The notes below the pieces were generated by a model that did no database searches, was not told the DNA's origin, and saw nothing but the letters and a program-made list of their open reading frames with translations. A program made the translations under genes and the position numbers. Positions 6,699 to 63,900 of a DNA stretch of 64,000 nt are shown piece by piece. Source of the DNA: Antedon mediterranea (taxonomy: Eukaryota > Animalia > Echinodermata); the NCBI RefSeq assembly GCF_964355755.1, contig NC_092671.1, positions 15,557,742 to 15,621,741 on the forward strand, in the 5' to 3' direction. Numbering within the stretch: position 1 is the first letter of the stretch; each line of letters opens with the position of its first letter.

Positions 6699-6729
<31 letters not shown>

Positions 6730-42400: not shown

Positions 42401-45400
42401 GTCGTCGACCACCACTCATGCTGGTTACATCCCTGTTATATATAGGAAAGTTTGAAAAAAAGATTACAGCAACTGGAGAATGAGAAGTCCGACTTCCAGG
42501 TGAGCATAGATATTCAGAAGGATAAGAGTGATCGTATGTGTACTGAATTAAGAACAGAATTACAATTGACCTACCAAGAACTTTCTCAGGTCAGAGGTGA
42601 AGAAGTTCATATACCAGAAAATACTCAACATTCGGTACAAGAATTACACAACACTATTGAACGGTAAATATATATGAATGAACTATGGAAGATCTATTTA
42701 TTTACAAAAGATTTAATGTGTGAATTATAAAGCCATGTCTTGTTGAAATATAAATTTAACATTTTCTTTTTAGTCTTACAAAAGAAAGTGTGACTTTGAA
42801 AGAAGACCTACAGTTAAGCATTACAAGTGTAAGTTTTCTTGATACCATTACCACATTTTTTTTCCGGCCATGCACTAATAAATTGAAATAATCAAATATA
42901 GAGATTTGATTTTGCAGAGTGTTGAGATTCAAGAAGATCTTATTAACTGTCAAGAGGAATTGGAACAATGTTCAGACAAGTGCAAGAAATTAAAGACTGA
43001 AGTTTTAACCCTCCACAAGGAACTGGAATGTTCCAGAAAGGTATCAGAAGAAAGAGTTACTCAACCTGAAGTAAGCAACCTACAAGATCAAGAGATGTAT
43101 ACACAAGAGATTGAAGCACTTAATAGCAAAATACTGGCTCTTCAAGAAGAACTGGAATGTTCCAGAAAGGTATCAGAAGTTAATCAACCTGAAGTAAGCA
43201 ACCTACAAGATCAAGAGATGCATACACAAGAGATTGAAGCACTTAATAGTAAAATACTGGCTCTTCAAGAAGAACTGGAGTGTTCCAGAAAGGTATCAGA
43301 AGTTAATCAACCTGAAGTAAGTAACCTACAAGATCAAGAGATGCATACACAAGAGATTGAAGGACTTAATGGCAAAATACTGGCTCTTCAAGAAGAACTA
43401 GAGTGTTTCAGAAAGGCATCTGAAGAAAGAGTTACTCAACCTGTAGTAAGTAATCCACAAGATAGCCAAGAGATGCATAAACAAGAGATTGAAGCACTTA
43501 ATGGCAAAATACTGGCTCTTCAAGAAGAACTTGAGTGTTCCAGAAAGGCATCAGAAGAAGGAGTTACTCAACCAGAAGTAAGCAACCTACAAGAGATGCA
43601 TACACAAGGGATTGAAGCACTTAATAGCAAAATACTGGCTCTTCAAGAAGAACTGGATGGTTCCAGGAAGGCATCAGAAGGAAGAGGTAATGAAAGGGAA
43701 GTAAGCACCATTCAAGAGATGCATAAACAAGAGATCGAAGCACTTAATAGCAAAATACTGGCTCTTCAAGAAGAACTGGATGGTTCCAGAATGTTGGCAG
43801 AAGAAAGAGTTACTCAACCTGAAGTAAGCAACATACAAAACCAACAGATGCATACACAAGAGATTAAAGCACTTAATAGCAAAATACTAGCTCTTCAGGA
43901 TAAACTCCAGCAGAAAGGGGAGAATGCACATGAAGAAGAACTAGAGATTGTCAAGAATATTGAAAAAAAGACAACTGAGGATAATTTGACAGTTTTGACG
44001 ATGCAGGAAACTCTACAGGAACGTGAAAAAGAGTGTGAAACTCAGAGGATTATCATAGTTTCTCTTCAAAAAGAAATTGAGCAACTGTCTTCTAATGATA
44101 TGGAATTACAAGAAAAGGAAGCATGTGATATAAATGGAAGCAATCAGGGGACTAGTAACATGGTTCTTCAAAAAGAATCGGATCACACTGCTGCAGAAAA
44201 GGAACATCCAGACAAAGAATCTGACATAATTTGTAATTTGCAAATGCAATTGAATGTGAAGACAAATGAATGTGAAACTTTAAATGAAATGGTGGTCTCC
44301 CTTCTTGAACAACTAGAAAAAGACAAAGAGTTTAAAGAAAGTGCTGAGGAGAGTGACTTAAAAGTCAAAGTTATAGAGCTTGAACGAAGATTGGAATTAA
44401 GTAGAGATTACGAGGTAGAACTTGAATCTCAAGTAGAAAATTTAAGAGAACTAACTATGATCAATGAATATGAAAATCCAGAAATTAATTCAAAGGAAAC
44501 GTTAATGGATGTTGCTGAGAACGATCCAGAATTGATTTCAGAAAGGGATACTACTTCAGGTAATAAATGCTCAGAAGAAGAAGATATCAGTTTAGATGAA
44601 AGTGAGAATATAACATCAGCCAGTATGGCTACAGTAGAATATGGTGAAAACAGGAAAAAGAATCTTGAATCAAAAGTTACTGAATTACAGGTTCGACTAG
44701 AAGAGATGACAGATTTACTGACGGAAATGTCGAAAAAACTTGAGCACTCGGAAGAGATGCTGAAATTCTCAAAAGATTATGAAGTTGAACTTGAAAGGCA
44801 ATTGGAAGAAGCAAATAAGAGCAAGGAACAGCAGATGGAAATGTTTAATAGGGATCAAGCTGAGACAGAATCAAAATTGGCTGATATGGAAACCAAAGTA
44901 TATGGCTCAGAGGCTAGTTATACAACTATAGAGTCAAAACTGACTGATGCAGAAGCCAAGTTGGTTTTTATGGAGTCTAATATAAGGGAAACCGAGGCGA
45001 AGTTTGCTGAAATGGAATCTAAGATTGTTGAGTTGAAATCAAAGCTTGCTGAATCGGAGGTTAAAGTTGAACAATGGAAGGTTGAAGCGGAAAGGAATAA
45101 ACGTTTGATTGCAGAACAGAGCATGAGCACTGATATGATGACAACACAGTAAGTTGATCTAAATATGAACTAGTATGAGCTTGTATGCTTTCTGCTTTAA
45201 AAATATGGTTCTTGAGACTACATATCTTCTAATACAGTATCTCTATATATTATTGTGAATACTGTGTTCAAAAAGATAATGTTTTTTATATATCCAGGCT
45301 TGAATCGTACAGACAGACTGCTGATCGTGCAAAGGGTGCACTTTTAGCTGAGAGCAACCGTGAGCTTGACCAGCAACGCAAGATTGAAACTCTTGAAAAT

Positions 45401-48400
45401 GCCCAGAAAGAGTCAGTAGCAGTTTTTCAACAGGCCAGTAAAGAAAAAGATGAGATTATTGCAGGTCTGGAGAAGAAGACCAAAGATCTATTGACCAAGT
45501 TAAGACAAACAGAAGCAGAGAGTGATCAAGCCACCCACAGGTCATTGCAGATGGAAAGAGAATCCCAGGTATAATTAATTATTTCAATTGTAAAATAGAT
45601 TACGGATAGAAATTGAACAGAGAATGGCCTATTAAAAAAATTACATTCATTTATACAAAGAAAATACAATTAACAGATTTACAATAAAAATCAGTACTGT
45701 ATAGATCATAAAAATACAATGTTATATTTCATCTTCTCTACCAGCCATGATGTTCTCGCATGTTATCAATGTTATGGTATACATACCTAACAAAAAGCTT
45801 GAAAAGCCTGCTATAAATGAGATCGCAGAAATTATCGAAGGTATTGAGTGTAGTCACCCTGAGGCGCTTGTAATTATCAATGGCGATTTCAACAGATGCA
45901 AGCTCAAGAAAACAACTGCCACATATTATCAGCATGTTACATGTAAAACGAGGGACAACGCGATTCTTGATTTATGCTACTCTAGTGTGAAGGATGCCTA
46001 TATTTCGACCCCACTACCGAACTTGGGCAAATCTGATCATAATTTGATTTTACTCAGTCCTAAATATCGCCCGTTAAATAAGACATGCCAACCAAAAATT
46101 ATTAATGTACGTAAATGGTCTCCTGAAGCCGAGGAAGCCCTGATAGCAGAATTTGAATCTACCGATTGGGATATTTTTACGGAGGATGAAGATTTGAATA
46201 GTATTACTTATGCAGTGAGCTCGTACATAAACTTTTGTATTGATAAATGCGTTCCAGTTAAAAAAGTGAAAATCTACCCTAATAACAAGCCATGGATCAC
46301 GAAAGGCGTTAAATTACTGTTGTGTGAGAAACGTAAAGCCTTTAAGATGGGCGACTCTAATCGTATGAAAATATTGACTAGAGAGATTAAATCTGAAATA
46401 AGGAAACAGAAGAACATTTATAGGAAAAAAGTTGAACATAACTTCAGGTCTAATAATATGAAACAAGTTTGGCAGGGTATTAAACTTATGAGTGGTTACA
46501 CAAACGGTGGTAATACACCCACCTCGATTCCGAATGTTACTGTGCAATATGTTAATGAGTTAAATGAATTTTATAACCGTTTTAATGTTCATGATTTTAA
46601 AAAAGAAAGAGAGGCCCTATTTAGCTTGTGTCGGGTGACTGAAGATGATCCCAAATTTAGTATAAGCATTTCTGATGTACATAGCGAATTCATGAAACTC
46701 AATTCATCGAAGGCTGCTGGGCCGGATAGAATCCCACCACGAGTACTTAAGGTCTGCTCTCCTCACCTTGATGGTATATTTACATTTATTTTCAATATGT
46801 GTCTTTCTTATCATGCGTTCCCGGATATTTGGAAACTTTCATGCATAATACCGGTACCTAAGAAACCTAAGATTAACAGCATGAATGATTTGAGACCCGT
46901 TGCACTCACGTCTGTCGCGATGAAAATATTGGAACGTATTATTTTAAAAATTATGCAACCTTATGCTGAAAAAGTGTTAGACCCGTTGCAATTTGCTTAC
47001 CGATCACTCCGTAGTACCAGTGATGCGATTTATTTTAAATTACATAAATTGTATTCACATCTAGATAATGTAAAGAAAGGCCACTCGGCACGTATTATGT
47101 ATTTTGATTTTCAGTCTGCGTTTAATACCATACAACCCCATATCTTAGCAGACAAAATGTTGAATATGGAGTTTCCCCGTCCGATTGTTCGTTTAGTTTT
47201 AAATTTCATTTGTGATAGAAAACAATTTGTTAATATTAATGGTGTTAAGTCAGAAATCGTAACCTCTGACACCGGTGTTCCTCAGGGTACTGTCAACGCA
47301 CCTAAATTATATTCCTTGTATACGGCCGATTACAGATCTTTAAATGATGAGCTTTGCCCCGTTGTTAAATTCGCTGATGACACTAGTACTATTGGTCTCA
47401 TAGTTTCAAACAATGATGAAAATTATCGTAGCGAAATACAAAGATTTGTAAAATTTTGTGACGATAATTATCTCCAAATAAATGCATCAAAAACAAAGGA
47501 GATGATCATTGATTTTAGGACTAAACATAAATTTAATTTTCAACCAATCACTATCAAAGGTAAAGAAATTGAAATTGTTGACCAGTACAAGTATCTAGGA
47601 ATTGTTTTCAATGATAAACTGAATTGGGGAGACCATATAGACTACATCAGCAAAAAATTAAATCCCAGAATGTATTGTATGAGAACTTTATATAAATTTA
47701 ACTCCTGTGATTTGATGTTACTTTCGTTTTATAGATCCGTTATATGTAGTGTTTGGACGTATTGCCTCTCCTGTTGGGCTGGTAATGTTACCGGAGGGAA
47801 TAAAGGACGCCTTGAAACTTTCATCCGTCGGGCTGGTAAAATGATTGGTCTGGAACTGCCTTCCTTTACCGATGTGCACCTAGAACACCTCCAGAAAGAT
47901 TTCGAACGCATTGAGTCGGATGCCTCTCATCCTCTCCACAAAGTGATCATAGACCAACTTAATCCAAGTGGTAGATTGAGGCTCCTCAGTGTGAAAACAA
48001 ATCGATTTGCTAAATCCTTTATTCCCTCCGGTATCATCCAGTACAACAGGAAGTCAAGAAGATAATTTTATCTTGTAATTTTTTAGATGTTTTTATATGA
48101 ATGGTTTTATGCTATATTTGTTTTTATTGTGTTTTCTTTGTTATTATGACGAGCAATGAATTTCCTTGTTGAGGATCAATAAAAGTTATCTTATCTTATC
48201 TTATCTTATGTAATATTTACTTTTATGTTTAAAGGACCTTCGTGATCGTGTAAAGGAGCTGGAGAATCACGCTTTTGATAATCGCCAGTTAACATGCAAA
48301 CAAGATATGGATCCTGCTAAGCTTGCACAACGTTTAAAACAAGTGGAGTTCAACCTTGATATAACAAAGCAAAAGGCAGATAAATTTGAGAAAATAAACA

Positions 48401-51400
48401 AAGAACTTAAAGGTTCGTACATAAATGATAAATGTATTTAAGTAATACCATATACATGAATATTATTAAGTTTAATTTGGACACAAGACTTTGGTAATTC
48501 ATTGATAATGCATGTGCAACAAGTATAATCTCAGCTGATTTTTCACAACTTTTGCACCCAGACATTGTGATACTCATATGCGGGAATAGCAGTAATAGTG
48601 TACTATGGTATGTGCCTATACAGTAAAGCAGAATTGCTGTTTCCTCTCGCATATTTCCATTTTCTTTCTTATTTTATACATTTTTTGGTTATGGTAAATT
48701 TACATTCTCTCTATTTTTTTTTTCAATTTTAGACTCAAATAAGAAATTTGAAGCCAATGAGTTCAAAGCAAATGATCTTGAGAAACAGCTGAGGGATGTC
48801 AACTTTGAATATGAGCGCCATCGCACACAGTATAATCGGTTGAAGTCTCGTTACGATAACATTGTAGTTGAACTAGCAGATATCAAACACAAACTGGCTA
48901 AATCGGAGATGAAAAATGCTGGTATTGATACTGATAAAATGAGGAATGACCTTTGCACTCTTGAGAAAGAGAGCATTAAACTAAAAGACAGAGTCAGCTT
49001 AAGTGATAAGAAAATCCTGCAGCTTGAGAACAGGATTGCAATTGATGATAAGGATAAAGTACACATACAAGATAAAATGAAATCTTTACAGGTAACATTA
49101 ACTATGTACAATAATAAATGTCATATCCATTTTGCCATCAATTATATAACGTGATAGAATTTGTTATTTATTTTTACAGGGTAACCTCTTCAGTCAAAGA
49201 CTGGTCTCCCAGAGGGCCAGTTATAATCAGTGGCTGTGTGTATACTAGTACACAGGGGTAACCCCCTACTCATCTCAAAAAATGTACTAGGTTCTTTAAA
49301 TTGCACATGAGCTAGATGTGTACACTGGACCTACGGTTTATCCGAGAAGACTCGTTCTACTACCAGAACCATATGGAGCGAGTGAGCCTAGAACCCTTGC
49401 CGATGTTATGGCTATGTAATTACGATTCCACTGTCTTAACGGCTCGGCCACTCACTCGCTAAGTACATATAAATATAAAATATTCATTTCATATAGGATG
49501 AGCTGCAGTATAACAAAACTACAATTCAGGAATTACAGTTAGAAAAAGAACACACACTGAAGAAAATGGAACAGAATGAGAAACATTTCAACAGCGTTTG
49601 TCAAGAACTGGAAAATGAGTTGACCGCATGTAAGAAGCTGTTAACAGAATGCCAAGAGCAACTTCAAGATTCAATGGTATTTGGAATATTTATGTATTGT
49701 ATTTAGTGTTTTCAATAAATTAAAAAAGCTTGTGAAAATGTGTAAGACATTGATTGATTGATTATACAGTATTTGACTACATGCATTTTGAAACATACCA
49801 AAGGGATACATTCTACCAAAGTATTATCTTCAATGAAGGCAAGACCGGTTTGGTTTGTAGATCAGTAATTCAATATGATTTGTTGTGATATTACAGGAGA
49901 AGGAAATGAAATTTAAGACAGAAATTGAAGAACTTAACGAAGAGAAAGAAAATGTGAATGAAAGGTTAACGACGATGGAGGAAGAACTAGAAAAGCAAAG
50001 CAGTCAACATGAACAAGAAATTAACACATTACAGGTGGGATGAGCTACATTTATTTATTATTTTTTTATTTAGTAAGTAATTAATTAAGGGCATTTCTAA
50101 TAAATGAAGCTCTGTCTACACTATCAAATTATCTGACGAAAAACTTGATGTGCCCATATATGGACCATATCTAAGCAAATCACTACCATATATGAACATA
50201 TCACACTTTTTGTTGTAAAACTAGTTTGATAGTGTAAACAGAGCTTAGGACAAATTGAAATAATGAACCCAATTTGGTGAGAGTAAGAAAAAAAAACTGT
50301 TTTAATAAACTGAATTAGGAGGATTTTATGAATTGTGTGACCAAGATGGATGCAGTTAGAGAAGAGAACAATCGAGCCAATGAGAGAATTAAAGAAGTGG
50401 AGATAGAAGCTAAGGAAAAAATGGAAAACATTCAGGAAGAGCTAGCTGAACAATCACTGAAACACCAACAAGAAATGGATACATTACAGGTATAGTTATC
50501 TCATCTTCTTTTACTGTGCAGAACTGTGTTTAAGTATAGTGGTACATGATGTTTGCATTTGATAATAACAATTACCGTAAGGAATGTTGCTATCAATTCT
50601 AATCTAATTAATAAATCTAATAGAAAGATGCAATGAAGTATATGGCTGAAATGGCCAACATGAAAGAAGGAAAAGAAATTTCCAATGATCAACTTAGAGA
50701 AGAGTTGACAGAAGCTGAGCTAAAAATAGAAAACATTGAAAAAGAACTTGCAGACCAATCAACAAGATATGAACAGGAACTCAAGTCGTTACAGGTGGGC
50801 TAACATTTTAATCATTTAACTAGAATACAAGAATACGCCACTGCTGTAATTTCTTCATTATTGGTTATTAGTTTAGTACCCTAAAGTATAATTAAATTTT
50901 CTTGAATCTAATTTAATAGGAAGATGGAATGAAATACATGACAGAAATAGAACAACTTAAAGAAGAGAAGGAAAAGATAAATGAAATGTTAAAGGAACAA
51001 ATTGTAGAAGCTGAAAAGAAACTAGAGACAAATCAAGAACAACAAGAAAAACAAAGTATTCAGCATCAACAAGAAATTAGCACATTACAGGTAGGAACCG
51101 CTACATTAATTAAAACAATAAATAGGACAAATTGTCTTAAACTGTAAGTACTTAGAAGCATATCGAACCATGTAAGCATGAACCCAATTTGGTGAGATGA
51201 AAGTGAACATAAATCATTGTCAATACCATACCTTTTTAATTGAATTAGGAGGATTTTATGAATTGTATGAGCAAGAAGGATGCACTTAGAGAAGAGAACA
51301 AACGAGCCAATGAGAGAATTAAAGAAGTGGAGATAGAAGCTAAGGAAAAAATGGAAAACATTCAGGAAGAGCTAGCTGAACAATCACTGAAACACCAACA

Positions 51401-54400
51401 AGAAATGGATACATTACAGGTATAGTTATCTCATCTTCCTTTACTGTGCAGAACCGTGTTTAAGTATAGTGGTACATATTAGGGAGGTTTCGCAACCTTA
51501 CAAATACGATAACGAAAACGGATATGTCATACATTTGTGAAACTTTTGAGCTGATCCCCATTTCATATTCGTAAAGCGTATTCGTGTTGACGAATATCAC
51601 CAGTCATATTCGTAACTACAAAACGAGTATAGTTTTTGATCTATTTTGCACATTTTGCATTTGAATCAGGAATGATTCATGATTATAATATAATTATAGA
51701 TTTATTGAAAGTAATTTACTAAAGTAATTTACTAAAATGCCAAGTCAATTTTGATAAATAGCAGTTTTTAAAGTCCTCACTCGCTTTGATGTTACGCTAG
51801 GCCTAGGCAGCCAAGCACCAAGCAACACGTACCTGCGCTTCGCTCAAATTTACCGCAGTCATATTTTGGACGCGCCTTAATATTTCGTTGCCATGCGAAA
51901 CAGATTTTTTATGACTTACGAAAACGAATATGTGTGCGTGACGTATCCGTTTTTGTTATCGTATTCGTAAGATTGCGAAACCTCTCTAATACTTATGATG
52001 TTTGCATTTAATAATAATAATTGCCATAAGGAATGTTGCTAACAATTCTAATCTAATTAATAAATCTAATAGGGAGATGCAATGAAGTATATGGCTGAAA
52101 TGGCGAACATGAAAGAAGGAAAAGAAATTTCCAATGATCAACTTAGAGAAGAGTTGACAGAAGCTGAGCTGAAAATAGAAAACATTGAAAAAGAACTTGC
52201 AGACCAATCAACAAGATATGAACAGGAACTCAAGTCGTTACAGGTGGGCTAAAATTCAAATACTAGAAAAAAGAATACGATACTGATCCGCAAGATGCAA
52301 TAATATCTCATTATTTGTTTAGATTGTAGATACCTTCAGTTTTTAGTTTGTAAAACTAAAAGTACCCTAAAGTATAGTGTTTTTTTTTCTATAAATGACA
52401 TTCTTCTTGAATCAAATCTAATAGGAAGATGGAATGAAATATATGACAGAAATAGAACAACTTAAAGAAGAGAAGGAAAAGATAAATGAAATGTTAAAGG
52501 AACAAATTGTAGAAGCTGAAAAGAAACTAGAGACAAGTCAAGAACAGCACCAACAGGAAATTAGCACCTTACAGGTAGGAAACACTTCCTTGAAAATTGT
52601 TGATATTGTTTAGATGAGAATGATAACTAGACAAATGACACTCCTATTTGTTTTGAAATGTCTTACATACAGACTGATTCAATCAAATACATGACTAAGA
52701 TGGAAATGCTAAAAGAAGAAAAGGATGCTGCCAATGTCAGACAGATAGAAGATGAAGAAACAATAGAAAGAGTCAAGCAAGAGGTAGCAGATCAATCTAT
52801 TAGATATCAACAAGAAATCAATACATTGATGGTATGTTTACCTAAATGGCCAGTAACTGTTATACAAATAATAAATATAGGAGTTTCAATGTGAAAAATG
52901 TTTCACGAGTTGGAAGATTGGCTATTCAATTTAACGAAATGAGTTTATGCATGCTTGCAATGAACGAAATTATTCCCCTCAATCAACAAGTATAAAACAT
53001 GAATTATTTGTTTTATAACACACCTAACACAATCAATCGATTTTACCATGCAATAAAGTTTATCACAAATAGCGAGAGCGATGCATGATGAAGAAATTGG
53101 GAGCAATAGCGCCACCACCAGTATATAAAGTTATTGGCTATTTCTCCCAACCATTCCCATCATGCATTGTGCAATGACGTTCCTCGCAAAATCAAGCTAT
53201 TTGCAATAGACATTATAGAACTAATACAGGTGTGTTATACAATGTAATGTTGTCGTTGTGTACAAGTACATGATATTATTCCCAAGAACAATATTAGAAA
53301 GAAAGTATCTATGAATGACATTAATGTGTGAAAAGTTCTCATGTAAAGACAATCGAGCTATATTCATGTACACCTGAACAAGGAAGCTATGCATCATGTA
53401 GTTTGTGATCTTGTTTGATGTATTTGTTTAGATTTTAGCATTTGTTCTTTGTTTGTTCTAACTTACAGTGTAGCATAAAGGACTTACAAATGGAGCTAAC
53501 ATCACTGCAGGAAACAAACGAGGCTGCAGAACAAGACGATTGGGCTTTAAGTAAAGTTTGCAATGATCTTAAATTAGAATTGGAGGAAGAACGGCAACAA
53601 AAGAAACAAATGAATGATGTATTGAAGCAAGAACAAGTAAGTTGTAAAAAAAAAATATATGGCTTTATTTAAAAATGTTTCAATTTAACAATTGTATTGA
53701 AGTAACAAAGTACTTGGCGTATTTTATGGTCGCTCTTTGTGTTTTCCAACTGATGAATACGTGTAGATAGTGCACCCTCTTCCGGATGAGATGTTAAGCT
53801 GTTGGTCCTGTGTGCAACATGGCTCATGTGCATGTTAAAGAAATTGGGCAGTACACCAGGAGATTCGAAGATTGTACTGTCCAAGTCGAAGATATCCTTG
53901 GTGTACTACTACTACTGTGTCATGTATAATTATTCTGTTTTTCAGTTATGCATTTCTTCGCATTTGATTACTACTTTAATTGTAATAATTTGATTGTTAC
54001 TTTAAAAAAATGATTATGTATAAGTTATATATCTATTTTTTTCTGTAGGATAAGTGTTCAGATCTGATGTCAAAACATGACTTGTTGGTGAGTCAACTAG
54101 AAAAATTAAAACGTTCAGAATGTGATCTTGAAAAGTTGTGCGATCAGATCCAGGAGGAACAAGAGGAAGAAGAAAGAAAACATAAAGAAACAAAAGAAAA
54201 ATTAAACAAATTAGAGGTAATTTACTAGTTTTTTTGTTGTTTGTGTGCTCAGTCATAAGTTGTAATAAGTGTTTTTCTGGTTTCTTTCATTTATTAAACC
54301 ATACTTAGTATGTAAATTTCTGGAATTGTTTGGAAGTACGGTATATGAAATCCATGTAATTTGACCAATTGTCAATTGGTTTAATTGCTTGTGTTGTGCT

Positions 54401-56671
54401 CTATCCCAAAAATTACTTTCTTCTGCTGCAGGAAAAATATTCAAAACATGACGTTTTAGTGAGTCAACTAGAAAAAATGAAACGTTCAGAAAGTGATCTA
54501 GAAAAGTTGTGTGATCAGATCCAGGAGGAACAAGAAGAAGAAGAAAGAAAACATCAAGAAACAAAGGAAAAATTAAACAAATTAGAGGTAAGAGGCCATT
54601 TGTGTTTTTAATCTATTATTTTTGAATATTTTAGTGTTTTGAAATGGTTGTCTTGTACTTTTATATCCTATACTTTTTATAATCGATTATTTCAATTTTT
54701 TTGTTTTAGAAAAAGTTTTTAGACTTTAAACAAAAATTTGCTGAAATAAATGCAGCATGCGAAAAGATTAAAAAGGAAAAGAAAGACGACGAAACAGAAC
54801 TTAAAAAGACAAAAACTAAACTGGCTGAACTTGAGGTGAGAAGACGTTTAATATTTGAAACAATATTCAATATGTACAATTGTGCAATGCTATATTAAAC
54901 CAATATTTACATTTATTTTACTTCAAAAATTAAATATCGATAATAAAAGCACAACAAAAAAAAACCAACTGTACTGTTCTATCTCAATAGCAATAACCTA
55001 TGTAAATACCGATACTTTTGTTATTTTATTCTTTAGTAATTACATTACCTTTAAATTGTGTTTAAAATTATTTGTTTTGATGTTGTTAGGCCACTGTAAA
55101 AAAGAACCAGTATTTAACAGATGTAAATGCACTAAAGGCCCTTCAACAAGAGCTTCTGGATAAGAAAATGAAAATTGTGTCCTTAGAATCGGAAATTCTA
55201 AAATGTACAGACCCTCTTGAAAAAAGGTAAGCCTTTATATAATTATGAAAGCTAGTGTACACTAGGAAACTTGATCAAACTTTTTTACTTAACAAATCGC
55301 TAGTTTCCTCATATCTTTCACAATTTCATTACAATTGAATTTGCAATACTTTGAAAGTTTGAAATACAATACTATTAGTAAATTTTGTTAATTTTTAGAA
55401 TTTCTCAACTTACCAAGGAACTTGCTGACAGTTTTGAGAAGGTTGAAAGTTGGAAGAATGAAGTGAAAAGATTGCGAAGACTTGATAACGCAGGTACACA
55501 TTTATATAAATATTTTTACCAACAGAATGTCACAATAGTCTTCTTCTCCACATGCCATGTCTTACAAACGATTATGGCTTTCCAATTGTTCAATCTGAAA
55601 CTGTTTCAGTATTCAGTTTGGTGGCAGCACTCGACATGAAGGGACCTTCAGGGGAGTAGAAAGTTGTGGTATGTGTCATCCACACCCAGTAGGCTGCAAG
55701 TTGCAGGTTATTCCCCCATTTACATGGATGTATTATGAAAGTTGGTAATGTGATCATTTGTTTATATTGTAGAGGATGGCAACACCTTGCGAAGATCAGA
55801 GGCTGGTTCTTCCGGGTCTGGCATCATTCAGGAATGTGCTGTGTTTACCCTGAAAGCAGAGAAGTCTAAGCTGGAACTGGAGTTGAAGAAATCAAAACAC
55901 AAAGTTAATGATCTTGAAAAGAAATACAATGAGAAAAGCATGTTTTACCAAGAAGAAATGTGCGTAGTTGGTCACTTGTTGTAGATGTTATGTTATAATA
56001 TAATGGTAGTTTTATTTCAACGGTATGCATTTATCAATTCTCACTGTGTAGTTTTTCTGTTTTTCTTAGTACAAGAAACACAAGACTTCGAGCTGAATTG
56101 AAGCGCTATGTGGAAAAAGTTAGTAGAATTGAGAAATTTCAAGAACCAACAGCTAAAGATGGAAAGAGGCCTCTCAATGGTAAGAGAATGGTTTTCTTTT
56201 ATGTAAATAGTTTCCAAAAATATATCTTTGTAACACAAACATTGGAATTTTGATATTTTATTTAACCTCAACACATGCTAAAATCGTTTACAGAAGCTAA
56301 CATACCAATTGACTGAATAGATGTTTCAATTTAGTCAATCCCGTACAACTGTCATATTCACATTATGTAATAGTAAATATCAGATCAGGAATAACACAAC
56401 ATTTGAGACACATGTACACACTACTTGTTTGATTTGTCTGAAATATGTTAATATAATTTTATACAAAATTTATTTAGATATTCCCACAAATAGTCCGGTT
56501 AAAAAGGCAGCAAAAGTTCACACAACCGTGGAGAGTTTACCAAAAGGTTCGAAGTCTACTACATTAACTGCAATAAAGAAGACAAAACCAAACGACTGGG
56601 ATAATTTTTTGCAGCCTGCCATTGAACAATTAAATGAGGAAGACAATCCTAAACAATGTACTCAACAATAG
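30391..56671 (+). CDS. CENPE: CENP-E-like kinesin-7 (centromere-associated protein E), complete CDS, 40 exons, 2753 aa
   Basis: N-terminal kinesin motor: [25 protein letters not shown]-loop, SSRSHTIF switch [11 protein letters not shown] switch II, neck [15 protein letters not shown] long coiled-coil stalk follows. The C-terminus is ...NPKQCTQQ then stop: a CAAX-type box (vertebrate CENP-E ends CKTQ). Exons, all GT-AG except one GT(gcgt) donor, phase checked, total 8262 nt: 30391-30437, 30596-30696, 30831-30920, 32742-32860, 33149-33259, 33712-33793, 34858-34925, 35223-35291, 35528-35911, 36072-36230, 36613-36790, 36962-37128, 38034-38209, 38710-38830, 39074-39193, 39602-39736, 42446-42663, 42773-42827, 42918-45148, 45298-45568, 48235-48412, 48732-49090, 49497-49676, 49897-50034, 50319-50489, 50624-50794, 50920-51090, 51249-51419, 52073-52243, 52425-52574, 52673-52831, 53469-53636, 54049-54216, 54432-54587, 54710-54835, 55090-55226, 55399-55493, 55773-55959, 56070-56179, 56478-56671. 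Confidence 0.9.
30596..30696 (+). CDS. CENPE: CENP-E-like exon 2 (motor)
   Basis: ttatag|ggaatcc ... ttttg|gtaggt. Confidence 0.85.
30831..30920 (+). CDS. CENPE: CENP-E-like exon 3 (motor)
   Basis: tttcag|attatg ... gatg|gtacta. Confidence 0.85.
31209..32563. mobile_element. Non-autonomous DNA transposon family C, about 1.35 kb (TIR TTAAAGATGTATTGTCCCCC)
   Basis: 31209 ttaaagatgtattgtccccc ... gggggacaatacatctttaa 32563. It has GC-rich sub-terminal inverted repeats (31350-31390 versus 32290-32390). It lies in CENP-E intron 3. The ORFs 31286-31773 and 32215-32418 sit inside the element. Confidence 0.7.
32742..32860 (+). CDS. CENPE: CENP-E-like exon 4 (P-loop GQTSSGKT)
   Basis: ttaaag|gtactatt ... 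gaccag|gtagga. Confidence 0.9.
33149..33259 (+). CDS. CENPE: CENP-E-like exon 5 (motor)
   Basis: ttttatag|tcaactg ... caagag|gtaaat. Confidence 0.85.
33405..33520. mobile_element. Small hairpin/MITE-like element (cactcataaacattca ... tgaaggtttatgagtg)
   Basis: Internal inverted repeat; a related inverted fragment lies at 31120-31160. Confidence 0.4.
33712..33793 (+). CDS. CENPE: CENP-E-like exon 6 (motor)
   Basis: cttgtag|aaacgtg ... ggacc|gtaagt. Confidence 0.85.
33893..34027. mobile_element. MITE family A copy, 5' TIR degraded
   Basis: 3' TIR tttgatagtgttgacagagcttt and core ccccaaatatgg. Confidence 0.5.
34225..34484. mobile_element. MITE family B copy
   Basis: atatatcctcttgtataatcccaccccc ... 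gtgggattaaaccagaggacatacggtatag. Confidence 0.6.
34482..34829. mobile_element. Tc1/mariner-like MITE (TIR AGAGTTCTGCGGTGTGACGTCAC, TA flanks), about 350 bp
   Basis: 34482 agagttctgcggtgtgacgtcac ... gtgacgtcagcacagcagaactct 34829, flanked by TA on both sides. The TIR contains the CRE palindrome TGACGTCA. Its 3' end is 28 bp upstream of the exon 7 acceptor. Confidence 0.65.
34858..34925 (+). CDS. CENPE: CENP-E-like exon 7 (switch I SSRSH)
   Basis: tttacag|aacaacg ... tgtatt|gtaagt. Confidence 0.85.
35223..35291 (+). CDS. CENPE: CENP-E-like exon 8 (motor)
   Basis: ttcatag|gttattg ... gacta|gtaaga. Confidence 0.85.
35528..35911 (+). CDS. CENPE: CENP-E-like exon 9 (switch II DLAGSE, neck)
   Basis: ttttag|aaccttg ... 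gatcag|gtaatt. Confidence 0.9.
35909..36035 (+). repeat. About 65-bp tandem duplication copying the exon 9 splice donor
   Basis: caggtaattcatttttaaaaaagattatggattgataagtccaatcttaacataggttatttgt is followed by a second copy caggtaattcatttaaaaaagattatacggatctagtccaatcttaacataggtgtttgtt. Confidence 0.85.
36072..36230 (+). CDS. CENPE: CENP-E-like exon 10
   Basis: tctcag|tttgat ... aaaagg|gtaaga. Confidence 0.8.
36613..36790 (+). CDS. CENPE: CENP-E-like exon 11
   Basis: tttttag|ccaaac ... tgatg|gtatgt. Confidence 0.8.
36962..37128 (+). CDS. CENPE: CENP-E-like exon 12 (contains KKKRRR basic patch)
   Basis: tttacag|aatttt ... acagag|gtatgt. Confidence 0.8.
37187..37723. mobile_element. Family C MITE copy, about 540 bp (TIR AAAGATGTATTGTCCC)
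   Basis: gaaagatgtattgtcccttt ... aaagggacaatacatctttaa; in CENP-E intron 12. Confidence 0.7.
37820..37968. mobile_element. MITE family A copy
   Basis: agctctgtctacattatcaaa ... tatagtgtagacagacctt. Confidence 0.7.
38034..38209 (+). CDS. CENPE: CENP-E-like exon 13
   Basis: tttctag|aatgta ... acaat|gtaagc. Confidence 0.8.
38710..38830 (+). CDS. CENPE: CENP-E-like exon 14
   Basis: tggcag|ggaaat ... attgag|gtatta. Confidence 0.8.
39074..39193 (+). CDS. CENPE: CENP-E-like exon 15
   Basis: tccctag|ataaaac ... gatcag|gtaata. Confidence 0.8.
39602..39736 (+). CDS. CENPE: CENP-E-like exon 16
   Basis: gtgacag|actgga ... gagatg|gtaagg. Confidence 0.8.
39850..41777. mobile_element. hAT-like non-autonomous element, about 1.9 kb (TIR CAGGGCTCGATTTA), carrying a nested insertion
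   Basis: 39850 cagggctcgattta ... taaatcgagccctg 41777. Sub-terminal tagcccactgggcta / tagcccggagctg repeats. It contains the nested element at 40139-40898 and AGGCCT-rich tracts. It is followed by (CATACACTCATTCC)x3. Confidence 0.55.
40139..40898. mobile_element. hAT-like MITE (short derivative of the 27039-30016 element), 8-bp TSD AATTAACT
   Basis: Same TIRs ggcgctactgcagtttcgcaccacac ... gtgtggtgcgaaactgcagtagcgcc. The first 230 bp and last 380 bp are 90-95% identical to the ends of the 2.98-kb copy. The octamer aattaact is duplicated at both flanks. Confidence 0.8.
41894..42436. mobile_element. hAT-like MITE (TIR CAGGGATGTCACCA), 8-bp TSD TT(T/A)TATAT
   Basis: cagggatgtcaccacgg ... tggttacatccctg. 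Internal palindromic G/C homopolymers (ccccccccacccgattttttttggggggaggggggg). It ends 10 bp before the exon 17 acceptor. Confidence 0.6.
42446..42663 (+). CDS. CENPE: CENP-E-like exon 17
   Basis: tatatag|gaaagt ... gaacg|gtaaat; the acceptor is 10 bp from a hAT-like TE terminus. Confidence 0.8.
42773..42827 (+). CDS. CENPE: CENP-E-like exon 18
   Basis: tttttag|tcttac ... acaagt|gtaagt. Confidence 0.75.
42918..45148 (+). CDS. CENPE: CENP-E-like giant coiled-coil exon 19 (2231 nt) with internal 41-44-aa tandem repeats
   Basis: Corresponds to the six-frame ORF 42906-45152. Acceptor ttttgcag|agtgtt, donor acaca|gtaagt. Confidence 0.9.
43000..43900 (+). repeat. Coding tandem repeat, 123-132-bp units x about 7, inside CENP-E exon 19
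   Basis: The 41-44-aa unit [10 protein letters not shown](ERVT/V)[29 protein letters not shown] is repeated in frame. Confidence 0.9.
45298..45568 (+). CDS. CENPE: CENP-E-like exon 20
   Basis: atccag|gcttga ... cccag|gtataa. Confidence 0.8.
45735..48210 (+). mobile_element. 5'-truncated non-LTR retrotransposon (CR1/L2/Rex1-like) with a long intact RT ORF
   Basis: ORF 45747-48065 (772 aa): C-terminal part of the AP-endonuclease (INGDFNRC), an RT domain with [18 protein letters not shown] and FADDT motifs, and a 3' tail ending in (TTATC)4 at 48190-48210. It lies in CENP-E intron 20, sense orientation, 25 bp upstream of the exon 21 acceptor. Confidence 0.85.
48235..48412 (+). CDS. CENPE: CENP-E-like exon 21
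   Basis: tttaaag|gacctt ... ttaaag|gttcgt. Confidence 0.8.
48732..49090 (+). CDS. CENPE: CENP-E-like exon 22
   Basis: atttag|actcaa ... ttacag|gtaaca. Confidence 0.8.
49497..49676 (+). CDS. CENPE: CENP-E-like exon 23
   Basis: atatag|gatgag ... caatg|gtattt. Confidence 0.8.
49897..50034 (+). CDS. CENPE: CENP-E-like exon 24 (ends ..QEINTLQ)
   Basis: ttacag|gagaag ... tacag|gtggga. Confidence 0.8.
50107..50246. mobile_element. MITE family A copy
   Basis: Same TIRs; core gtgcccatatatggacc. Confidence 0.75.
50319..50489 (+). CDS. CENPE: CENP-E-like exon 25 (57-aa module, ends ..QEMDTLQ)
   Basis: aattag|gaggat ... tacag|gtatag. Confidence 0.8.
50624..50794 (+). CDS. CENPE: CENP-E-like exon 26 (57-aa module, ends ..QELKSLQ)
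   Basis: taatag|aaagat ... tacag|gtgggc. Confidence 0.8.
50920..51090 (+). CDS. CENPE: CENP-E-like exon 27 (57-aa module, ends ..QEISTLQ)
   Basis: aatag|gaagat ... tacag|gtagga. Confidence 0.8.
51249..51419 (+). CDS. CENPE: CENP-E-like exon 28 (near-identical duplicate of exon 25)
   Basis: aattag|gaggat ... tacag|gtatag. Confidence 0.75.
51481..51985. mobile_element. MITE (TIR AGGGAGGTTTCGCAA(C/T)CTTAC(A/G)AATACGATAAC(G/A)AAAACGG), about 505 bp
   Basis: About 40-bp terminal inverted repeats. It is present in duplicate copy 2 (the intron after exon 28). The paralogous intron after exon 25 has the empty site ggtacat-gatgtttgc. Confidence 0.8.
52073..52243 (+). CDS. CENPE: CENP-E-like exon 29 (duplicate of exon 26)
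   Basis: taatag|ggagat ... tacag|gtgggc. Confidence 0.75.
52425..52574 (+). CDS. CENPE: CENP-E-like exon 30 (duplicate of exon 27 with a 21-nt deletion)
   Basis: aatag|gaagat ... tacag|gtagga. Confidence 0.75.
52673..52831 (+). CDS. CENPE: CENP-E-like exon 31
   Basis: catacag|actgat ... tgatg|gtatgt. Confidence 0.75.
53469..53636 (+). CDS. CENPE: CENP-E-like exon 32
   Basis: cttacag|tgtagc ... aacaa|gtaagt. Confidence 0.8.
54049..54216 (+). CDS. CENPE: CENP-E-like exon 33
   Basis: tctgtag|gataag ... tagag|gtaatt. Confidence 0.8.
54432..54587 (+). CDS. CENPE: CENP-E-like exon 34 (paralogous to exon 33)
   Basis: gctgcag|gaaaaa ... tagag|gtaaga. Confidence 0.8.
54710..54835 (+). CDS. CENPE: CENP-E-like exon 35
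   Basis: ttttag|aaaaag ... ttgag|gtgaga. Confidence 0.8.
55090..55226 (+). CDS. CENPE: CENP-E-like exon 36
   Basis: ttgttag|gccact ... aaaag|gtaagc. Confidence 0.8.
55399..55493 (+). CDS. CENPE: CENP-E-like exon 37
   Basis: tttttag|aatttc ... cgcag|gtacac. Confidence 0.8.
55773..55959 (+). CDS. CENPE: CENP-E-like exon 38
   Basis: attgtag|aggatg ... gaaat|gtgcgt (non-canonical GTGCGT donor, the weakest junction in the model). Confidence 0.65.
56070..56179 (+). CDS. CENPE: CENP-E-like exon 39
   Basis: tcttag|tacaag ... caatg|gtaaga. Confidence 0.75.
56478..56671 (+). CDS. CENPE: CENP-E-like terminal exon 40 (CAAX-type box CTQQ, stop TAG 56669-56671)
   Basis: atttag|atattc ...; agrees with the six-frame ORF ending at 56671. 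Confidence 0.85.
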
Positions 56672-57900: not shown

Positions 57901-60900
57901 AGTACAGGGATTTTTTCCAAAAATGGCAAAAATATCCAGTTTTTAAAATTCAATCATTATTATGCGATAATACAGTATTGCTATATATGTGCATATATTG
58001 CGTTATCATCTTATTATAGATTATTTGTAACCAATTATGTCGAAAAATAAAATGGTCGAAATTTGGTGATTTTTCGAAAATTTCTCTGTACTATACTGCC
58101 CTGTCATGAAAGAACGACTCAACTGACACATTTTTCAAAAATCACTTTTTTAACTTTTTGGGCTATTTAGGGCCGGGAATGATACACCTTGTGGTATATT
58201 CAGATATTCAAAATTTTAACTAGAAATATGAAATTTAAAAATCAAAATACCACTCAATTACAAGTGTGTGTGTTACTATTGTCACCAAAGACTAACTCAA
58301 CTACAAATGCCATGAAAGACTCACTCAAATGACATATTAACACCTATTATCATAGGAAACCCACCATTCAAGTGCACAACAATGGTGTTAATTGCACAGC
58401 AAGCTGTGTAATGTTGTTGTTTTAAATATAAAATAATTTGGTACTGCCCTACGAATAATTGTCAATAATTATTTTATTCAATACTCACTTAAACTTGTTT
58501 AGTTATTATTAGAGTATTAATTTTATTTCTGTAATATTTAGAATTAAATGCCCCGGAGAGAGACTATGTGAACACCGTAATGATATTATTATTGAATATT
58601 CTCCCCCTTAAATTAATACTTAAAACTAAAGTAAAAATACAAGAAACATGAAAAATAATTTTCGAAAATTTCCCTGTACTATAGTACAGGAATTTTTCAA
58701 AAAATGGCAAATTTTCGACCTTTTTATTTTTCGATAAAACTGGTTATAATAGCACAATTGACATGCGCTGAACTCATTATTCGACCCGGCGTATGTTTAT
58801 TATGCAATAGTAACCATTTATGTCAAAATATAAAAGGGTCGAAAATCGGCAATTTTTCAAAAATTTCCCTGTACTATAGTACAGGGATTTTTAAAAAAAT
58901 GGCAATTTTCAACCTTTTTTTTTCTCGATAAAACTGGTTACTATAGCACAATTGACATGCGCAGAATCCATTATTCGCCTCTGCGCATGTTTATTATGCT
59001 ATCTTAACCATTTATGTAAAAACTTCTCTGCGCATGTTTATTATGCAATAGTAACCATTTATGTCAAAAAATAAAAGGGTGGAAAATCGGCAATTTTTCA
59101 AAAATTTCCCTGTACTATAGTACAGGAATTTTTCAAAATATGGCAAATTTTCGACCTTTTTATTTGTCGATAAAACTGGTTAACCACTTTTGACACAAAT
59201 GGTTACTATAGCATAATAAACATGCGCAGAGTCGAATATTGGGTTCTGCGCATGTCAATTTTGCTATAGTAACCGTTTATGTCAAATATGGTTATGATAG
59301 CACAATTGACATGCGCATAACCCATTATTCGACTCTTCGCATGTTTATTATGATATAGTAACCATTTATGTCAAAACTGGATACTGTAGCACAATTGACA
59401 TGCGCAGAACCCATTATTCGTCTCTTCGCATGTTTATTATGCTATAGTAACCATTTATGTCAAAAACTGGTTACTGTAGCACAATTGACATGCGCAGAAC
59501 CCATTATTCGTCTCTGCGCATGTTTATTATGATATAGTAACCATTTTTGTCAAAAAATAAAAGGGTCGAAAATCGGCAATTTTTCGAAAATTTCCCTGTA
59601 CTAGTATAGTACACGAATTTTTTTTTTAAATGGCCAATTTTCGACCTTTTTATTTTTCGATAAAACTGGTTACTATAGGACAATTAACATGCGCAGAACC
59701 ATTTATGTCAAAACTGGTTACTGTAGCACAATTGACATGCGCAGAACCCATTATTCGTATCTGCGCATGTTTATTATGCAATAGTAACCATTTATGTCAC
59801 AAAATTTCCCTGTACTATAGTACAGGGATTTTTCCAAAAATGGCAAATTTTCGACCTTTTTATTTTTCGATAAAACTGGTTACTATAGCACAATTGACAT
59901 GCGCATAACCCATTATTCGCCTCTGCGCAAGTTTATTATGCTATAGTAACCATTTATGTCAAATATGGTTATGATAGCACAAAACAAAAGAGTCGAAAAT
60001 CGGCCATTTTTTCAAAATTTCCCTGTACAGGGATTTTTTTCAAGAAAATTGCCAATTTTCGACCTTTTTATTTTTCGATAAAACTGGTTACTATAGCACA
60101 ATTAACATGCGCAGAACCCATTAGTCGCCTTTGCGCATGTTTATTATGCTATAGTAACCACTTTTGACATAAATGGTTACTATAGCATAATAAACATGCG
60201 CAGAGTCGAATAATGGGTTCTGCGCATGTCAATTGTGCTATAGTAACCATTTATGTCAAATATGGTTATGATATCACAATTGACATGCGCAGAACCTATT
60301 ATTCGACTCTGCGCATGTTTATTATGCAATAGTAACCATTTACGTCAAAAAATAAAAGGGTCGAAAATCGGCCATTTTTCGAAAATTTCCCTGTACTAAT
60401 AGTACAGGAATTTTTTTTTTAAATGGCCAATTTTCGACCTTTTTATTTTTTGATAAAACTGGTTACTATAGCACACTTAACATGTGCAGAACCCATTACT
60501 CGCCTCTGCGCATGTTTATTATGCTATAGTAACCATTTATGTCAAATATGGTTATGATAGCACAATTAACATGCGCAGAACCCATTAGTCGCCTCTGCGC
60601 ATGTTTATTATGCTATAGTAACCATTTATGTCACAAAATAAAAGGGTCGAAAATCGGCAATTTTTCGAAAATTTCCCTGTACTATAGGCTATATAGTTCA
60701 GGAATTTTTCCAAAAATTGCAAATTTTCGACCTTTTTATTTTTCGATAAAACTAGTTACTATAGCACAATTAACATGCGCAGAACCCATTACTCGCATCT
60801 GCGCATGTTTATTATGCTATAGTAACCATTTATGTCAAATATGGTTATGATAGCACAATTGACATGCGCAGAACCCATTATTCGACTCTGCGCATGTTTA

Positions 60901-63900
60901 TTATGCAATAGTAACAATTTTTGTCAAAAAATAAAAGGGTCGAAAATCGGCAATTTTTCGAAAATTTCCCTGTACTAGTATAGTACACGAATTTTTTTTT
61001 TAAATGGCCAATTTTCGACCTTTTTATTTTTCGATAAAACTGGTTACTATAGGACAATTAACATGCGCAGAACCATTTATGTCAAAACTGGTTACTGTAG
61101 CACAATTGACATGCGCAGAACCCATTATTCGTATCTGCGCATGTTTATTATGCAATAGTAACCATTTATGTCACAAAATTTCCCTGTACTATAGTACAGG
61201 GATTTTTCCAAAAATGGCAAATTTTCGACCTTTTTATTTTTCGATAAAACTGGTTACTATAGCACACTTAACATGTGCAGAACCCATTACTCGCCTCTGC
61301 GCATGTTTATTATGCTATAGTAACCATTTATGTCAAATATGGTTATGATAGCACAATTAACATGCGCAGAACCCATTAGTCGCCTCTGCGCATGTTTATT
61401 ATGCTATAGTAACCATTTATGTCACAAAATAAAAGGGTCGAAAATCGGCAATTTTTCGAAAATTTCCCTGTACTATAGGCTATATAGTTCAGGAATTTTT
61501 CCAAAAATTGCAAATTTTCGACCTTTTTATTTTTCGATAAAACTAGTTACTATAGCACAATTAACATGCGCAGAACCCATTACTCGCATCTGCGCATGTT
61601 TATTATGCTATAGTAACCATTTATGTCAAATATGGTTATGATAGCACAATTGACATGCGCAGAACCCATTATTCGTCTCTGCGCATGTTTATTATGATAT
61701 AGTAACCATTTTTGTCAAAAAATAAAAGGGTCGAAAATCGGCAATTTTTCGAAAATTTCCCTGTACTAGTATAGTACACGAATTTTTTTTTTAAATGGCC
61801 AATTTTCGACCTTTTTATTTTTCGATAAAACTGGTTACTATAGGACAATTAACATGCGCAGAACCATTTATGTCAAAACTGGTTACTGTAGCACAATTGA
61901 CATGCGCAGAACCCATTATTCGTATCTGCGCATGTTTATTATGCAATAGTAACCATTTATGTCACAAAATTTCCCTGTACTATAGTACAGGGATTTTTCC
62001 AAAAATGGCAAATTTTCGACCTTTTTATTTTTCGATAAAACTGGTTACTATAGCACACTTAACATGTGCAGAACCCATTACTCGCCTCTGCGCATGTTTA
62101 TTATGCTATAGTAACCATTTATGTCAAATATGGTTATGATAGCACAATTAACATGCGCAGAACCCATTAGTCGCCTCTGCGCATGTTTATTATGCTATAG
62201 TAACCATTTATGTCACAAAATAAAAGGGTCGAAAATCGGCAATTTTTCGAAAATTTCCCTGTACTATAGGCTATATAGTTCAGGAATTTTTCCAAAAATT
62301 GCAAATTTGACATGCGCATAACCCATTATTCGCCTCTGCGCAAGTTTATTATGCTATAGTAACCATTTATGTCAAATATGGTTATGATAGCACAAAACAA
62401 AAGAGTCGAAAATCGGCCATTTTTTCAAAATTTCCCTGTACAGGGATTTTTTTCAAGAAAATTGCCAATTTTCGACCTTTTTATTTTTCGATAAAACTGG
62501 TTACTATAGCACAATTAACATGCGCAGAACCCATTAGTCGCCTTTGCGCATGTTTATTATGCTATAGTAACCACTTTTGACATAAATGGTTACTATAGCA
62601 TAATAAACATGCGCAGAGTCGAATAATGGGTTCTGCGCATGTCAATTGTGCTATAGTAACCATTTATGTCAAATATGGTTATGATATCACAATTGACATG
62701 CGCAGAACCTATTATTCGACTCTGCGCATGTTTATTATGCAATAGTAACCATTTACGTCAAAAAATAAAAGGGTCGAAAATCGGCCATTTTTCGAAAATT
62801 TCCCTGTACTAATAGTACAGGAATTTTTTTTTTAAATGGCCAATTTTCGACCTTTTTATTTTTTGATAAAACTGGTTACTATAGCACACTTAACATGTGC
62901 AGAACCCATTACTCGCCTCTGCGCATGTTTATTATGCTATAGTAACCATTTATGTCAAATATGGTTATGATAGCACAATTAACATGCGCAGAACCCATTA
63001 GTCGCCTCTGCGCATGTTTATTATGCTATAGTAACCATTTATGTCACAAAATAAAAGGGTCGAAAATCGGCAATTTTTCGAAAATTTCCCTGTACTATAG
63101 GCTATATAGTTCAGGAATTTTTCCAAAAATTGCAAATTTTCGACCTTTTTATTTTTCGATAAAACTAGTTACTATAGCACAATTAACATGCGCAGAACCC
63201 ATTACTCGCATCTGCGCATGTTTATTATGCTATAGTAACCATTTATGTCAAATATGGTTATGATAGCACAATTGACATGCGCAGAACCCATTATTCGACT
63301 CTGCGCATGTTTATTATGCAATAGTAACAATTTACGTCAAAAAATAAAAAGGGAACATTTCCCTGTACTATATATAGTACAGGAATTTATTTAAAAAATG
63401 GCAAATTTTCGACCTTTTTATTTTTCGATAAAACTGGTTACTATAGCACAATTAACATGCGCAGAACCCATTAGTTGCCTCTGTGCATGTTTATTATGCT
63501 ATAGTAACCATTTATGTCAAAACTGGTTACTGTAGCAATTTTCGAGAATTTTGATAACGCAACATATGTGCATATATAGCAATATTATCGCATAATAATT
63601 GAATTTAAAAAATTGAATATTTTGGCCAAAGTTAAATTATTATGCGATAATATTGCTATATATGCGCATATGTTGCGTGTTATAACGTGTTATAGAGTGT
63701 TTGTAATGTCGAAAAAGAAAAGGGTTGAAATTTGGTCATTTTTAGACAATAATCCCTGTACTATACTACAGGGATTTTTTCAAGAAATGACCAAATTTCG
63801 GCCTTTCTATTTTTCGACTTAAGTGGTCACTATTATCATAATTTACATGCGCAAAACACGTAAAATGATACTCATTTATGAAAAAAAAATAAAAGTGTCG

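Follow-up and report, generated by a model that had tools for sequence, protein, structure and literature searches.

The DNA considered here, a window of 64,000 nucleotides (nt) that represents the whole stretch analysed and to which all coordinates refer, comes from the feather star Antedon mediterranea, a crinoid echinoderm, and carries a gene for a CENP-E-like (kinesin-7) motor protein (30391-56668, + strand) in whose stalk-coding region a block of three exons lies twice in tandem together with its introns. The RefSeq protein XP_071942687.1 (2753 amino acids, aa) maps onto the window at 100%, residue for residue, in 40 coding exons, and this exact mapping gives the two sets the numbers 25-27 and 28-30, the same as those assigned by the original prediction, an earlier reading of the bare sequence. 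A second RefSeq isoform, XP_071942688.1 (2723 aa; titled ‘uncharacterized protein isoform X2 [Antedon mediterranea]’), differs from the first only in 30 residues, an internal 90-nt stretch of coding exon 17 (42446-42664, +), which suggests an alternative internal splice.

The identity of the gene is declared by its motor. Kinesin motifs follow one another on the + strand at 32759 (GQTSSGKT, P-loop), 34896 (SSRSH, switch I) and 35537 (DLAGSE, switch II), at the N-terminal start of the mapped protein, and downstream of them come some 20 kb of exons rich in E, K, Q and L. A 128-aa fragment of this motor matches the Pfam family Kinesin (PF00225) at E 2.4e-40; its top two PDB matches are the human CENP-E structures 1t5c (3.8e-40) and 6m4i (3.3e-38), both ranked above kinesin-2 and kinesin-1, and its closest named database relatives are entries for ‘centromeric protein E’. 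A profile built from the translations of the eight repeat exons described below, run against 1.84 billion representative proteins, returned two strong matches only: XP_071942688.1 itself and XP_033109352.1, ‘centromere-associated protein E-like isoform X4 [Anneissia japonica]’, from another feather star. The Antedon and Anneissia proteins are 45% identical over 2825 aligned positions and share a conserved C-terminus; the Anneissia product carries a precomputed match to PF16796 (Microtub_bd). A word-indexed protein search with a 774-aa spliced segment of the stalk gave no match at E <= 1e-5, a search in which full-length CENP-Es were probably never scored, because the listed matches were always of query-like length.

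Judged by its sequence, then, the gene is the CENP-E orthologue of A. mediterranea, and its naming as such in the original prediction is borne out by the Pfam match, by 1t5c as best structure and by the CENP-E-like annotation of the Anneissia orthologue. It resembles characterised CENP-E (PMC4116301) in having an N-terminal motor nearest to CENP-E among solved structures and a stalk of more than 2000 residues; unlike other members of the family, it contains an array of 57-aa repeat exons that, among the 1.84 billion representatives, was found in the two crinoid proteins only.

The repeat-exon array and its duplicated block

Exons 24 to 31 encode a single family of repeats, each of about 57 residues, which can be written in order as C0, A1, B1, C1, A2, B2, C2 and D. 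The array opens with exon 24 (C0, 49897-50034, +, 138 nt) and closes with exon 31 (D, 52673-52831, +, 159 nt). Between these lie exons 25 (A1, 50319-50489), 26 (B1, 50624-50794) and 27 (C1, 50920-51090), all on the + strand, each 171 nt long, of phase 0/0, bounded by AG and GT and open from the first base, followed on the same strand by exons 28 (A2, 51249-51419, 171 nt), 29 (B2, 52073-52243, 171 nt) and 30 (C2, 52425-52574, 150 nt), likewise bounded by AG and GT and open from the first base, with nucleotide identities of 97.1%, 97.7% and 96.7% to A1, B1 and C1 respectively. Repeat exons of different types share 37-46% of their amino acids, and the three recent pairs are 91-98% identical. With 61-62% amino acid identity to C1 and C2 (63-64% in an Antedon-only alignment), C0 is best regarded as an older paralogue of the C-type exon. 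From exon 24 to exon 34 every length is divisible by three and no codon is split; therefore any subset of these exons would splice in frame.

That the block is duplicated is far beyond chance. In a self-BLASTN of 49400-53400, positions 50546-51107 match 51995-52591 at E 6e-150 and positions 50256-50547 match 51171-51477 at E 2e-94, and alignment of 50250-51180 with 51165-52620, slightly wider than the comparison by which the duplication was to be checked, displays a head-to-tail repeat. The homology extends through the introns, whose aligned segments are 90.6-96.4% identical with many small indels (12 gaps in a single intron of 125 nt), and in total the two copies are separated by 55 difference events over 836 bp. 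As originally predicted, therefore, three symmetric exons and their introns are repeated in tandem with both sets in frame, as attested by BLASTN, by the AG/GT boundaries and by the RefSeq models, both of which carry the two blocks in series. The prediction of three 171-nt exons in each set is accurate for exons 25 to 29 and fails for exon 30, from which 21 nt (7 codons) are gone in frame relative to C1. Every other repeat exon except C0 has residues in the columns of this gap, and therefore the gap is a deletion in C2. The predicted block starts of 50265 and 51181 describe a cyclic permutation of the same repeat for which we would place the units at 50044-51099 (copy 1, +: the greater part of intron 24, exons 25-27, the introns between them and the opening 9 nt of the intron after C1) and 51100-52583 (copy 2, +: the part of the junction intron derived from intron 24, exons 28-30, and 9 nt of the following intron), taking as boundary the point where the junction intron switches its resemblance from one older intron to another.

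The protein product of the double block has the character expected of a stalk. A structure predicted by AlphaFold2 for its 335 residues is a nearly continuous helix (mean predicted local distance difference test score 82), interrupted briefly at the KEGKE motif in both B exons, and fits a stalk segment. Coiled-coil length is converted at 0.1485 nm per residue, so the 164 residues added by the second block would lengthen the stalk by about 24 nm if they form a coiled coil.

Elsewhere in the stalk are further signs of internal repetition. Coding exons 33 (54049-54216, +) and 34 (54432-54587, +) are a duplicated pair, about 90% identical by eye over their shared exon sequence, and this duplication is older than that of the A-B-C block because the flanking introns no longer align. 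Within coding exon 19 (42918-45149), seven tandem units of 123 nt (43020-43897, +; 86% matches) encode a 41-residue repeat, a second mode of stalk expansion in the same CENP-E gene.

Private insertions and reciprocal empty sites

Each copy of the block contains an intronic insertion that the other lacks. In copy 2 this is a non-coding inverted-repeat element of 509 bp (51480-51988), bounded by TAGGGAGG...CCTCTCTA, with inverted arms of 53 nt (51477-51529 and 51939-51991) that are 91% complementary. The original prediction had described a miniature inverted-repeat transposable element (MITE) of 505 bp at 51481-51985 with terminal inverted repeats of 40 bp; the insertion is real, and it is the limits and the arm length that require amendment. 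The element ends in TAGGG and TAGAG, holds six ACGAATA-type motifs, mostly near its ends, and as a single strand folds into a long hairpin (z = -7.8); it contains no long open reading frame (ORF) and no evidence of a protein family. It is flanked by the 8-mers GTACATAT (51472-51479) and ATACTTAT (51989-51996), which match at six of eight positions and both fit nTnnnnAn. The homologous point in copy 1 (50539-50551) is unoccupied and reads GTGGTACATGATG, 2 bp shorter than the empty site GTGGTACATATGATG that all register-equivalent readings of the insertion predict, so that the claim of an empty site in copy 1 stands as to the absence of the element and is 2 bp off as to the exact sequence. Readings with a target duplication of TA, TWA or 9 bp were set aside, as they either fitted the empty site less well or offered only a match of 2 to 5 bp, common by chance.

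The ends, the subterminal repeats and the 8-mers of this element point to the hAT superfamily, in which Hermes generates 8-bp target duplications, prefers nTnnnnAn and carries subterminal repeats (PMC10368747). The TAGGG/TAGAG inverted ends, the ACGAATA-type subterminal repeats and the nTnnnnAn 8-mers resemble those of non-autonomous hAT elements; the six-of-eight match of the 8-mers is unlike them, as is the lack of a transposase-bearing relative or second copy in the window and collections searched. Its conserved end has no exact match in metagenome or viral contig collections, and the Anneissia locus contains no relative of it. The element may thus be called MITE-like and hAT-like on structure alone.

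The insertion private to copy 1 is a shorter element of 138 bp (50108-50245, AGCTCTG...CAGAGCT) in intron 24, and it belongs to a family well represented in the vicinity. A 22-nt end of this element has 13 matches in the window against none expected, which resolve into six full copies and one solo end (34006-34027). Besides that of intron 24, the full copies lie at 939-1073, 3348-3477, 4619-4766, 9763-9925 and 37820-37969, several of them within introns of the window's two genes. Members of the family are 130-163 bp long with ends AAGCTCTGTCTACACTATCAAA and inverted ends of about 22 nt, and perfect TTA/TTA or TAA/TAA triplets flank all but one of the six full copies. Short inverted ends, a 3-bp TWA duplication and multiple copies are the features by which the element is classed as a Tourist-like MITE of the PIF/Harbinger superfamily, where a 3-bp target duplication is typical (PMC9710019). 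The inverted ends, the presence of at least six copies in 64 kb and the TTA/TAA triplets of five of the six agree with such elements; the intron 24 copy, flanked by TGA and TAG, departs from them, and an autonomous partner was not identified. The sequences that flank this copy, AATAAA and TAGGACAAATTG, are contiguous in the junction intron (51117-51134), and therefore copy 2 preserves the empty site of the copy 1 MITE. No relative of the element was found in the Anneissia locus, and its end has no match in prokaryote genomes; one exact solo end was recovered at positions 317-338 (L001) of the AT-rich metagenome contig JAAUYM010039078.1, a contig that probably derives from a crinoid or another eukaryote whose DNA was present in an environmental sample.

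Paralogous or ‘related’ empty sites serve to document transposon insertions, the element-free duplicate marking both a discrete event and its boundaries. In contrast to such cases, a single gene here contains the filled and empty sites within about 1 kb of each other, in two reciprocal pairs. The 509-bp element would accordingly order the events, duplication before insertion, without dating them. The proposed order of insertion after duplication is supported, and it is the ‘very recent’ transposition offered with it that is doubtful, as the imperfect flanking duplication argues against a very recent insertion. A further inverted repeat at 52264-52391 was considered as an insertion and rejected, its left arm being present in copy 1 as well.

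Origin and age of the duplication

The manner in which the block was duplicated may be recorded, if faintly, in the junction intron that follows C1 (iJ, 51091-51248, +). The introns that follow the three C-type exons begin with GTGGGATGAGCTACATT (intron 24, or i0, 50035-50318, +, after C0), GTAGGAACCGCTACATT (iJ, after C1) and GTAGGAAACACTTCCTT (iD, after C2). Over its first 9 nt iJ matches iD at eight of nine positions and i0 at five; over nt 10-17 it matches i0 at all eight and iD at five, the 8-mer GCTACATT standing at the same offset in i0 and iJ. From about its tenth nucleotide onwards i0 is the homologue of 51100-51248: the whole-intron alignment of iJ with i0 gives z = 7, and 50263-50318 is 92% identical to 51178-51248. 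Such a seemingly chimeric intron suggests unequal exchange between two older, paralogous exon-intron boundaries. A crossover inside exon C itself was considered and rejected, as identity to C0 at the 3' end of C1 is no more than about 87%, and the three sites where C1 and C0 share a base that C2 lacks are more readily explained by changes in the C2 lineage.

On this evidence we propose, with a probability of roughly 0.8, that unequal exchange produced a second, head-to-tail copy of a block of about 915 bp that contains exons A, B and C together with introns, and that both copies have since been kept in series while diverging and acquiring private insertions. The ancestral stalk would have held an old array of small symmetric exons of phase 0/0 encoding helical repeats of about 57 residues. 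Crossing-over or template switching would then have joined the C0/i0 boundary to the C/iD boundary of the other chromatid, with the switch falling some 10 nt into the intron, leaving splice sites and reading frame intact in both copies; the serial placement of these in the predicted protein would add the 164 residues noted above. After the duplication, neutral sites would have diverged by about 7%, exon C of copy 2 would have lost its seven codons, and each copy would have received one intronic DNA transposon, the Tourist-like MITE in copy 1 and the 509-bp hAT-like element in copy 2.

The divergence of the copies places the event between two bounds. By the Nei-Gojobori method the three exon pairs differ by 6 synonymous and 8 non-synonymous changes, equivalent to a synonymous divergence (dS) of 0.076, a non-synonymous divergence (dN) of 0.020 and a ratio of 0.26, and intron mismatches between the copies amount to about 7%. 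These values are well above the k-mer heterozygosity of 1.54% reported for another feather star (PMC13079724). The duplication is judged to be much younger than the split between Antedon and Anneissia, because the stalks of the two species are only about 45% identical, and on its dS it would not be ‘very recent’; the label ‘recent’ given to it originally is appropriate in the first sense and misleading in the second. Synonymous sites have changed more often than non-synonymous ones (Fisher p = 0.019), which suggests, on small numbers, that both copies are under purifying selection and, by extension from the same few changes, that both are translated. The five differences between A1 and A2 are all non-synonymous (V/M, T/S, M/K, V/L and N/K; 50337-50372 against 51267-51302) and fall inside the first 54 nt, the other 117 nt being identical, which is odd, although the numbers are too few for significance.

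The orthologous locus of Anneissia japonica (L002, GCA_011630105.1) provides a parallel case. It contains six 171-nt phase-0 exons of the same family, R1 to R6, of which R2, R3 and R4 are spaced at exactly 367 bp (L002 19770-20674) in units of a 171-nt exon and a 196-nt intron; identity is 94-98% among the exons of these units and 96% between the two complete introns that separate them. In a neighbour-joining tree the repeats group by species, with A1/A2, B1/B2 and C1/C2 as terminal pairs. The 367-bp array is read here as an independent tandem triplication of a single exon. Four of the RefSeq-predicted Anneissia isoforms (X5, X6, X8 and X9) lack exactly R1, R4, R3 and R4, or R5 and R6, which hints that the repeat exons can behave as cassette exons, with the proviso that these isoforms are computational models and that near-identical exons can mislead read alignment. 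The Anneissia stalk also carries a separate large repeat, DELQ(Y/S)CKA(T/M)IHELESEREHL…, in three copies, which is single-copy in Antedon.

Several observations weigh against duplication by unequal exchange followed by private insertion, or at least against its details. To the left of 51178 the junction intron aligns weakly with either candidate parent (z = 2.3-3.1), and the exact point of exchange rests on two short matches. Neither insertion has left a textbook footprint: the triplets beside the intron 24 MITE are imperfect (TGA at 50105-50107, TAG at 50246-50248), the duplication flanking the 509-bp element matches at only six of eight positions and its unoccupied site in copy 1 deviates by 2 bp, and the 509-bp element is single-copy in the window. 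The exons contain difference-free tracts of 137, 95 and 82 nt, the longest of which has P = 0.003 under uniform placement, and so uneven a distribution could reflect gene conversion rather than age and selection. Finally, the correctness of the assembly and the inclusion of both blocks in messenger RNA depend on how far the copies diverge and on a RefSeq model that is itself a prediction (XP_).

Four alternatives were weighed against these observations. The first concerns use rather than origin: the blocks could be spliced as alternatives or as cassettes, giving stalk isoforms of differing length or sequence. The exons of the array all have lengths divisible by three and phase 0/0, the Anneissia isoforms omit repeat exons singly or in pairs, and alternative splicing is known to arise from exons duplicated in tandem (PMC9013439). 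In Antedon, by contrast, neither recorded isoform lacks any of the eight repeat exons, and the Anneissia isoforms are computational predictions for a region where near-identical exons can make read alignments ambiguous, so that we consider such use unlikely in the case of the Antedon blocks.

More doubtful is that the two-block structure is old and its identity has been maintained by gene conversion. This would account for the clustering of differences around clean tracts and for the grouping of repeat exons by species and not by position, as concerted evolution produces. Against it, homology runs throughout the introns, the indel-rich ones included, and not in exon-centred patches; two transposon insertions and many private indels have escaped homogenisation; the six Anneissia repeat exons show no A-B-C/A-B-C periodicity; and the clean tracts fit purifying selection too (dN/dS 0.26). 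Selection on exons can thus explain the clustering, and some gene conversion may have contributed to it, but conversion as the keeper of an ancient pair is improbable.

Were the 509-bp element older than the duplication and lost by excision from copy 1, the seemingly empty site would be a footprint and the order of events would be lost, and the 2 bp missing from that site and the two mismatches between the flanking 8-mers of copy 2, marking an insertion that is not fresh, could be cited for it. When a hAT-type element is excised, the two target duplications as a rule remain largely intact, slightly altered where they meet; copy 1, however, retains not even one full duplication unit and no base from the element, for which slippage of 2 bp between AT and ATAT is the simpler account, and we regard excision as very unlikely. 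We give hardly any credence to an assembly artefact in which two haplotypes of a single A-B-C block were laid in tandem: differences of a few percent, indels and the presence or absence of a transposon are also seen between alleles of polymorphic marine invertebrates, but about 7% neutral divergence and 12 gaps in one 125-nt intron contrast with a heterozygosity of 1.54% in a related feather star (PMC13079724), the window contains no Ns or gaps, the junction joins two paralogous exon-intron boundaries at homologous points, a tandem triplication arose independently within the same array in another species and assembly, and RefSeq models the two blocks serially. Duplication by unequal exchange, with the insertions following, is therefore the account we retain.

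Neighbouring sequence and wider significance

The intron between coding exons 20 and 21 holds, on the strand of the CENP-E gene, an intact ORF of 772 aa (45747-48065, +) with a Pfam RVT_1 match (E 2.6e-29) whose best relative is an ‘uncharacterized protein’ of Anneissia japonica (81% identity), and which looks like a young non-LTR (long terminal repeat) retrotransposon. Downstream of the gene, at about 59150-63700, is a satellite-like array of units of about 300 nt, spaced by 791-796 bp and by larger distances (2413 bp), in which identity between copies reaches 98-100%. Upstream of the kinesin gene, a run of exons with cysteine-rich repeats resembling epidermal growth factor (EGF) domains occupies 2635-8300 (+; MEGF-like by eye), and it is preceded by a fragmentary open stretch at 1082-2243 (+) that resembles a reverse transcriptase by eye; a Pfam scan of 1461-2243 was negative.

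Set against what is known of other animal genes, the events proposed for the array are ordinary: a tandem duplication of symmetric exons, followed by transposon insertions into introns, presents no challenge to current understanding. The arrangement agrees with tandem exon duplications in animal genes generally (PMC9013439), in which exon and intron copies lie adjacent in the same orientation and symmetric exons keep the frame, and whose duplicates can become alternative exons; it differs from them in that the unit is a block of three exons and not one, and in that the annotated Antedon protein contains the copies in series and not as mutually exclusive alternatives. A literature search returned no paper linking CENP-E, coiled coils and exon duplication. 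A parallel is human nebulin, in which a region of eight exons has been triplicated and copy-number polymorphism is documented. There too a multi-exon repeat block has been duplicated in the gene of a long rod-like protein, changing its length stepwise, although nebulin is an actin-binding ruler and the present protein a kinesin with a stalk.

What goes slightly beyond the routine is the pairing of reciprocal filled and empty sites, and the independent expansion of the same array in two feather-star lineages, possibly with exon skipping. The first allows an internal gene duplication to be ordered relative to two transposon insertions from sequence alone, with each copy serving as the empty-site control for the other, and the two private insertions could be used as markers of copy number or of presence and absence in Antedon populations. 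The second indicates that in feather stars the CENP-E stalk has lengthened more than once through tandem duplications of symmetric exons that are specific to a lineage. It is possible, though as yet doubtful, that the 171-nt exon array acts as a length-tuning module of the crinoid CENP-E stalk, expanded lineage by lineage and adjusted by alternative splicing. The length of the stalk is known to matter, as the attachment of kinetochores to microtubules is affected in ‘Bonsai’ CENP-E, whose stalk has been shortened (PMC4116301). If the repeat exons are indeed alternatively spliced, feather stars would possess natural stalk-length variants of this motor, arising both over evolution and between transcripts of a single gene.

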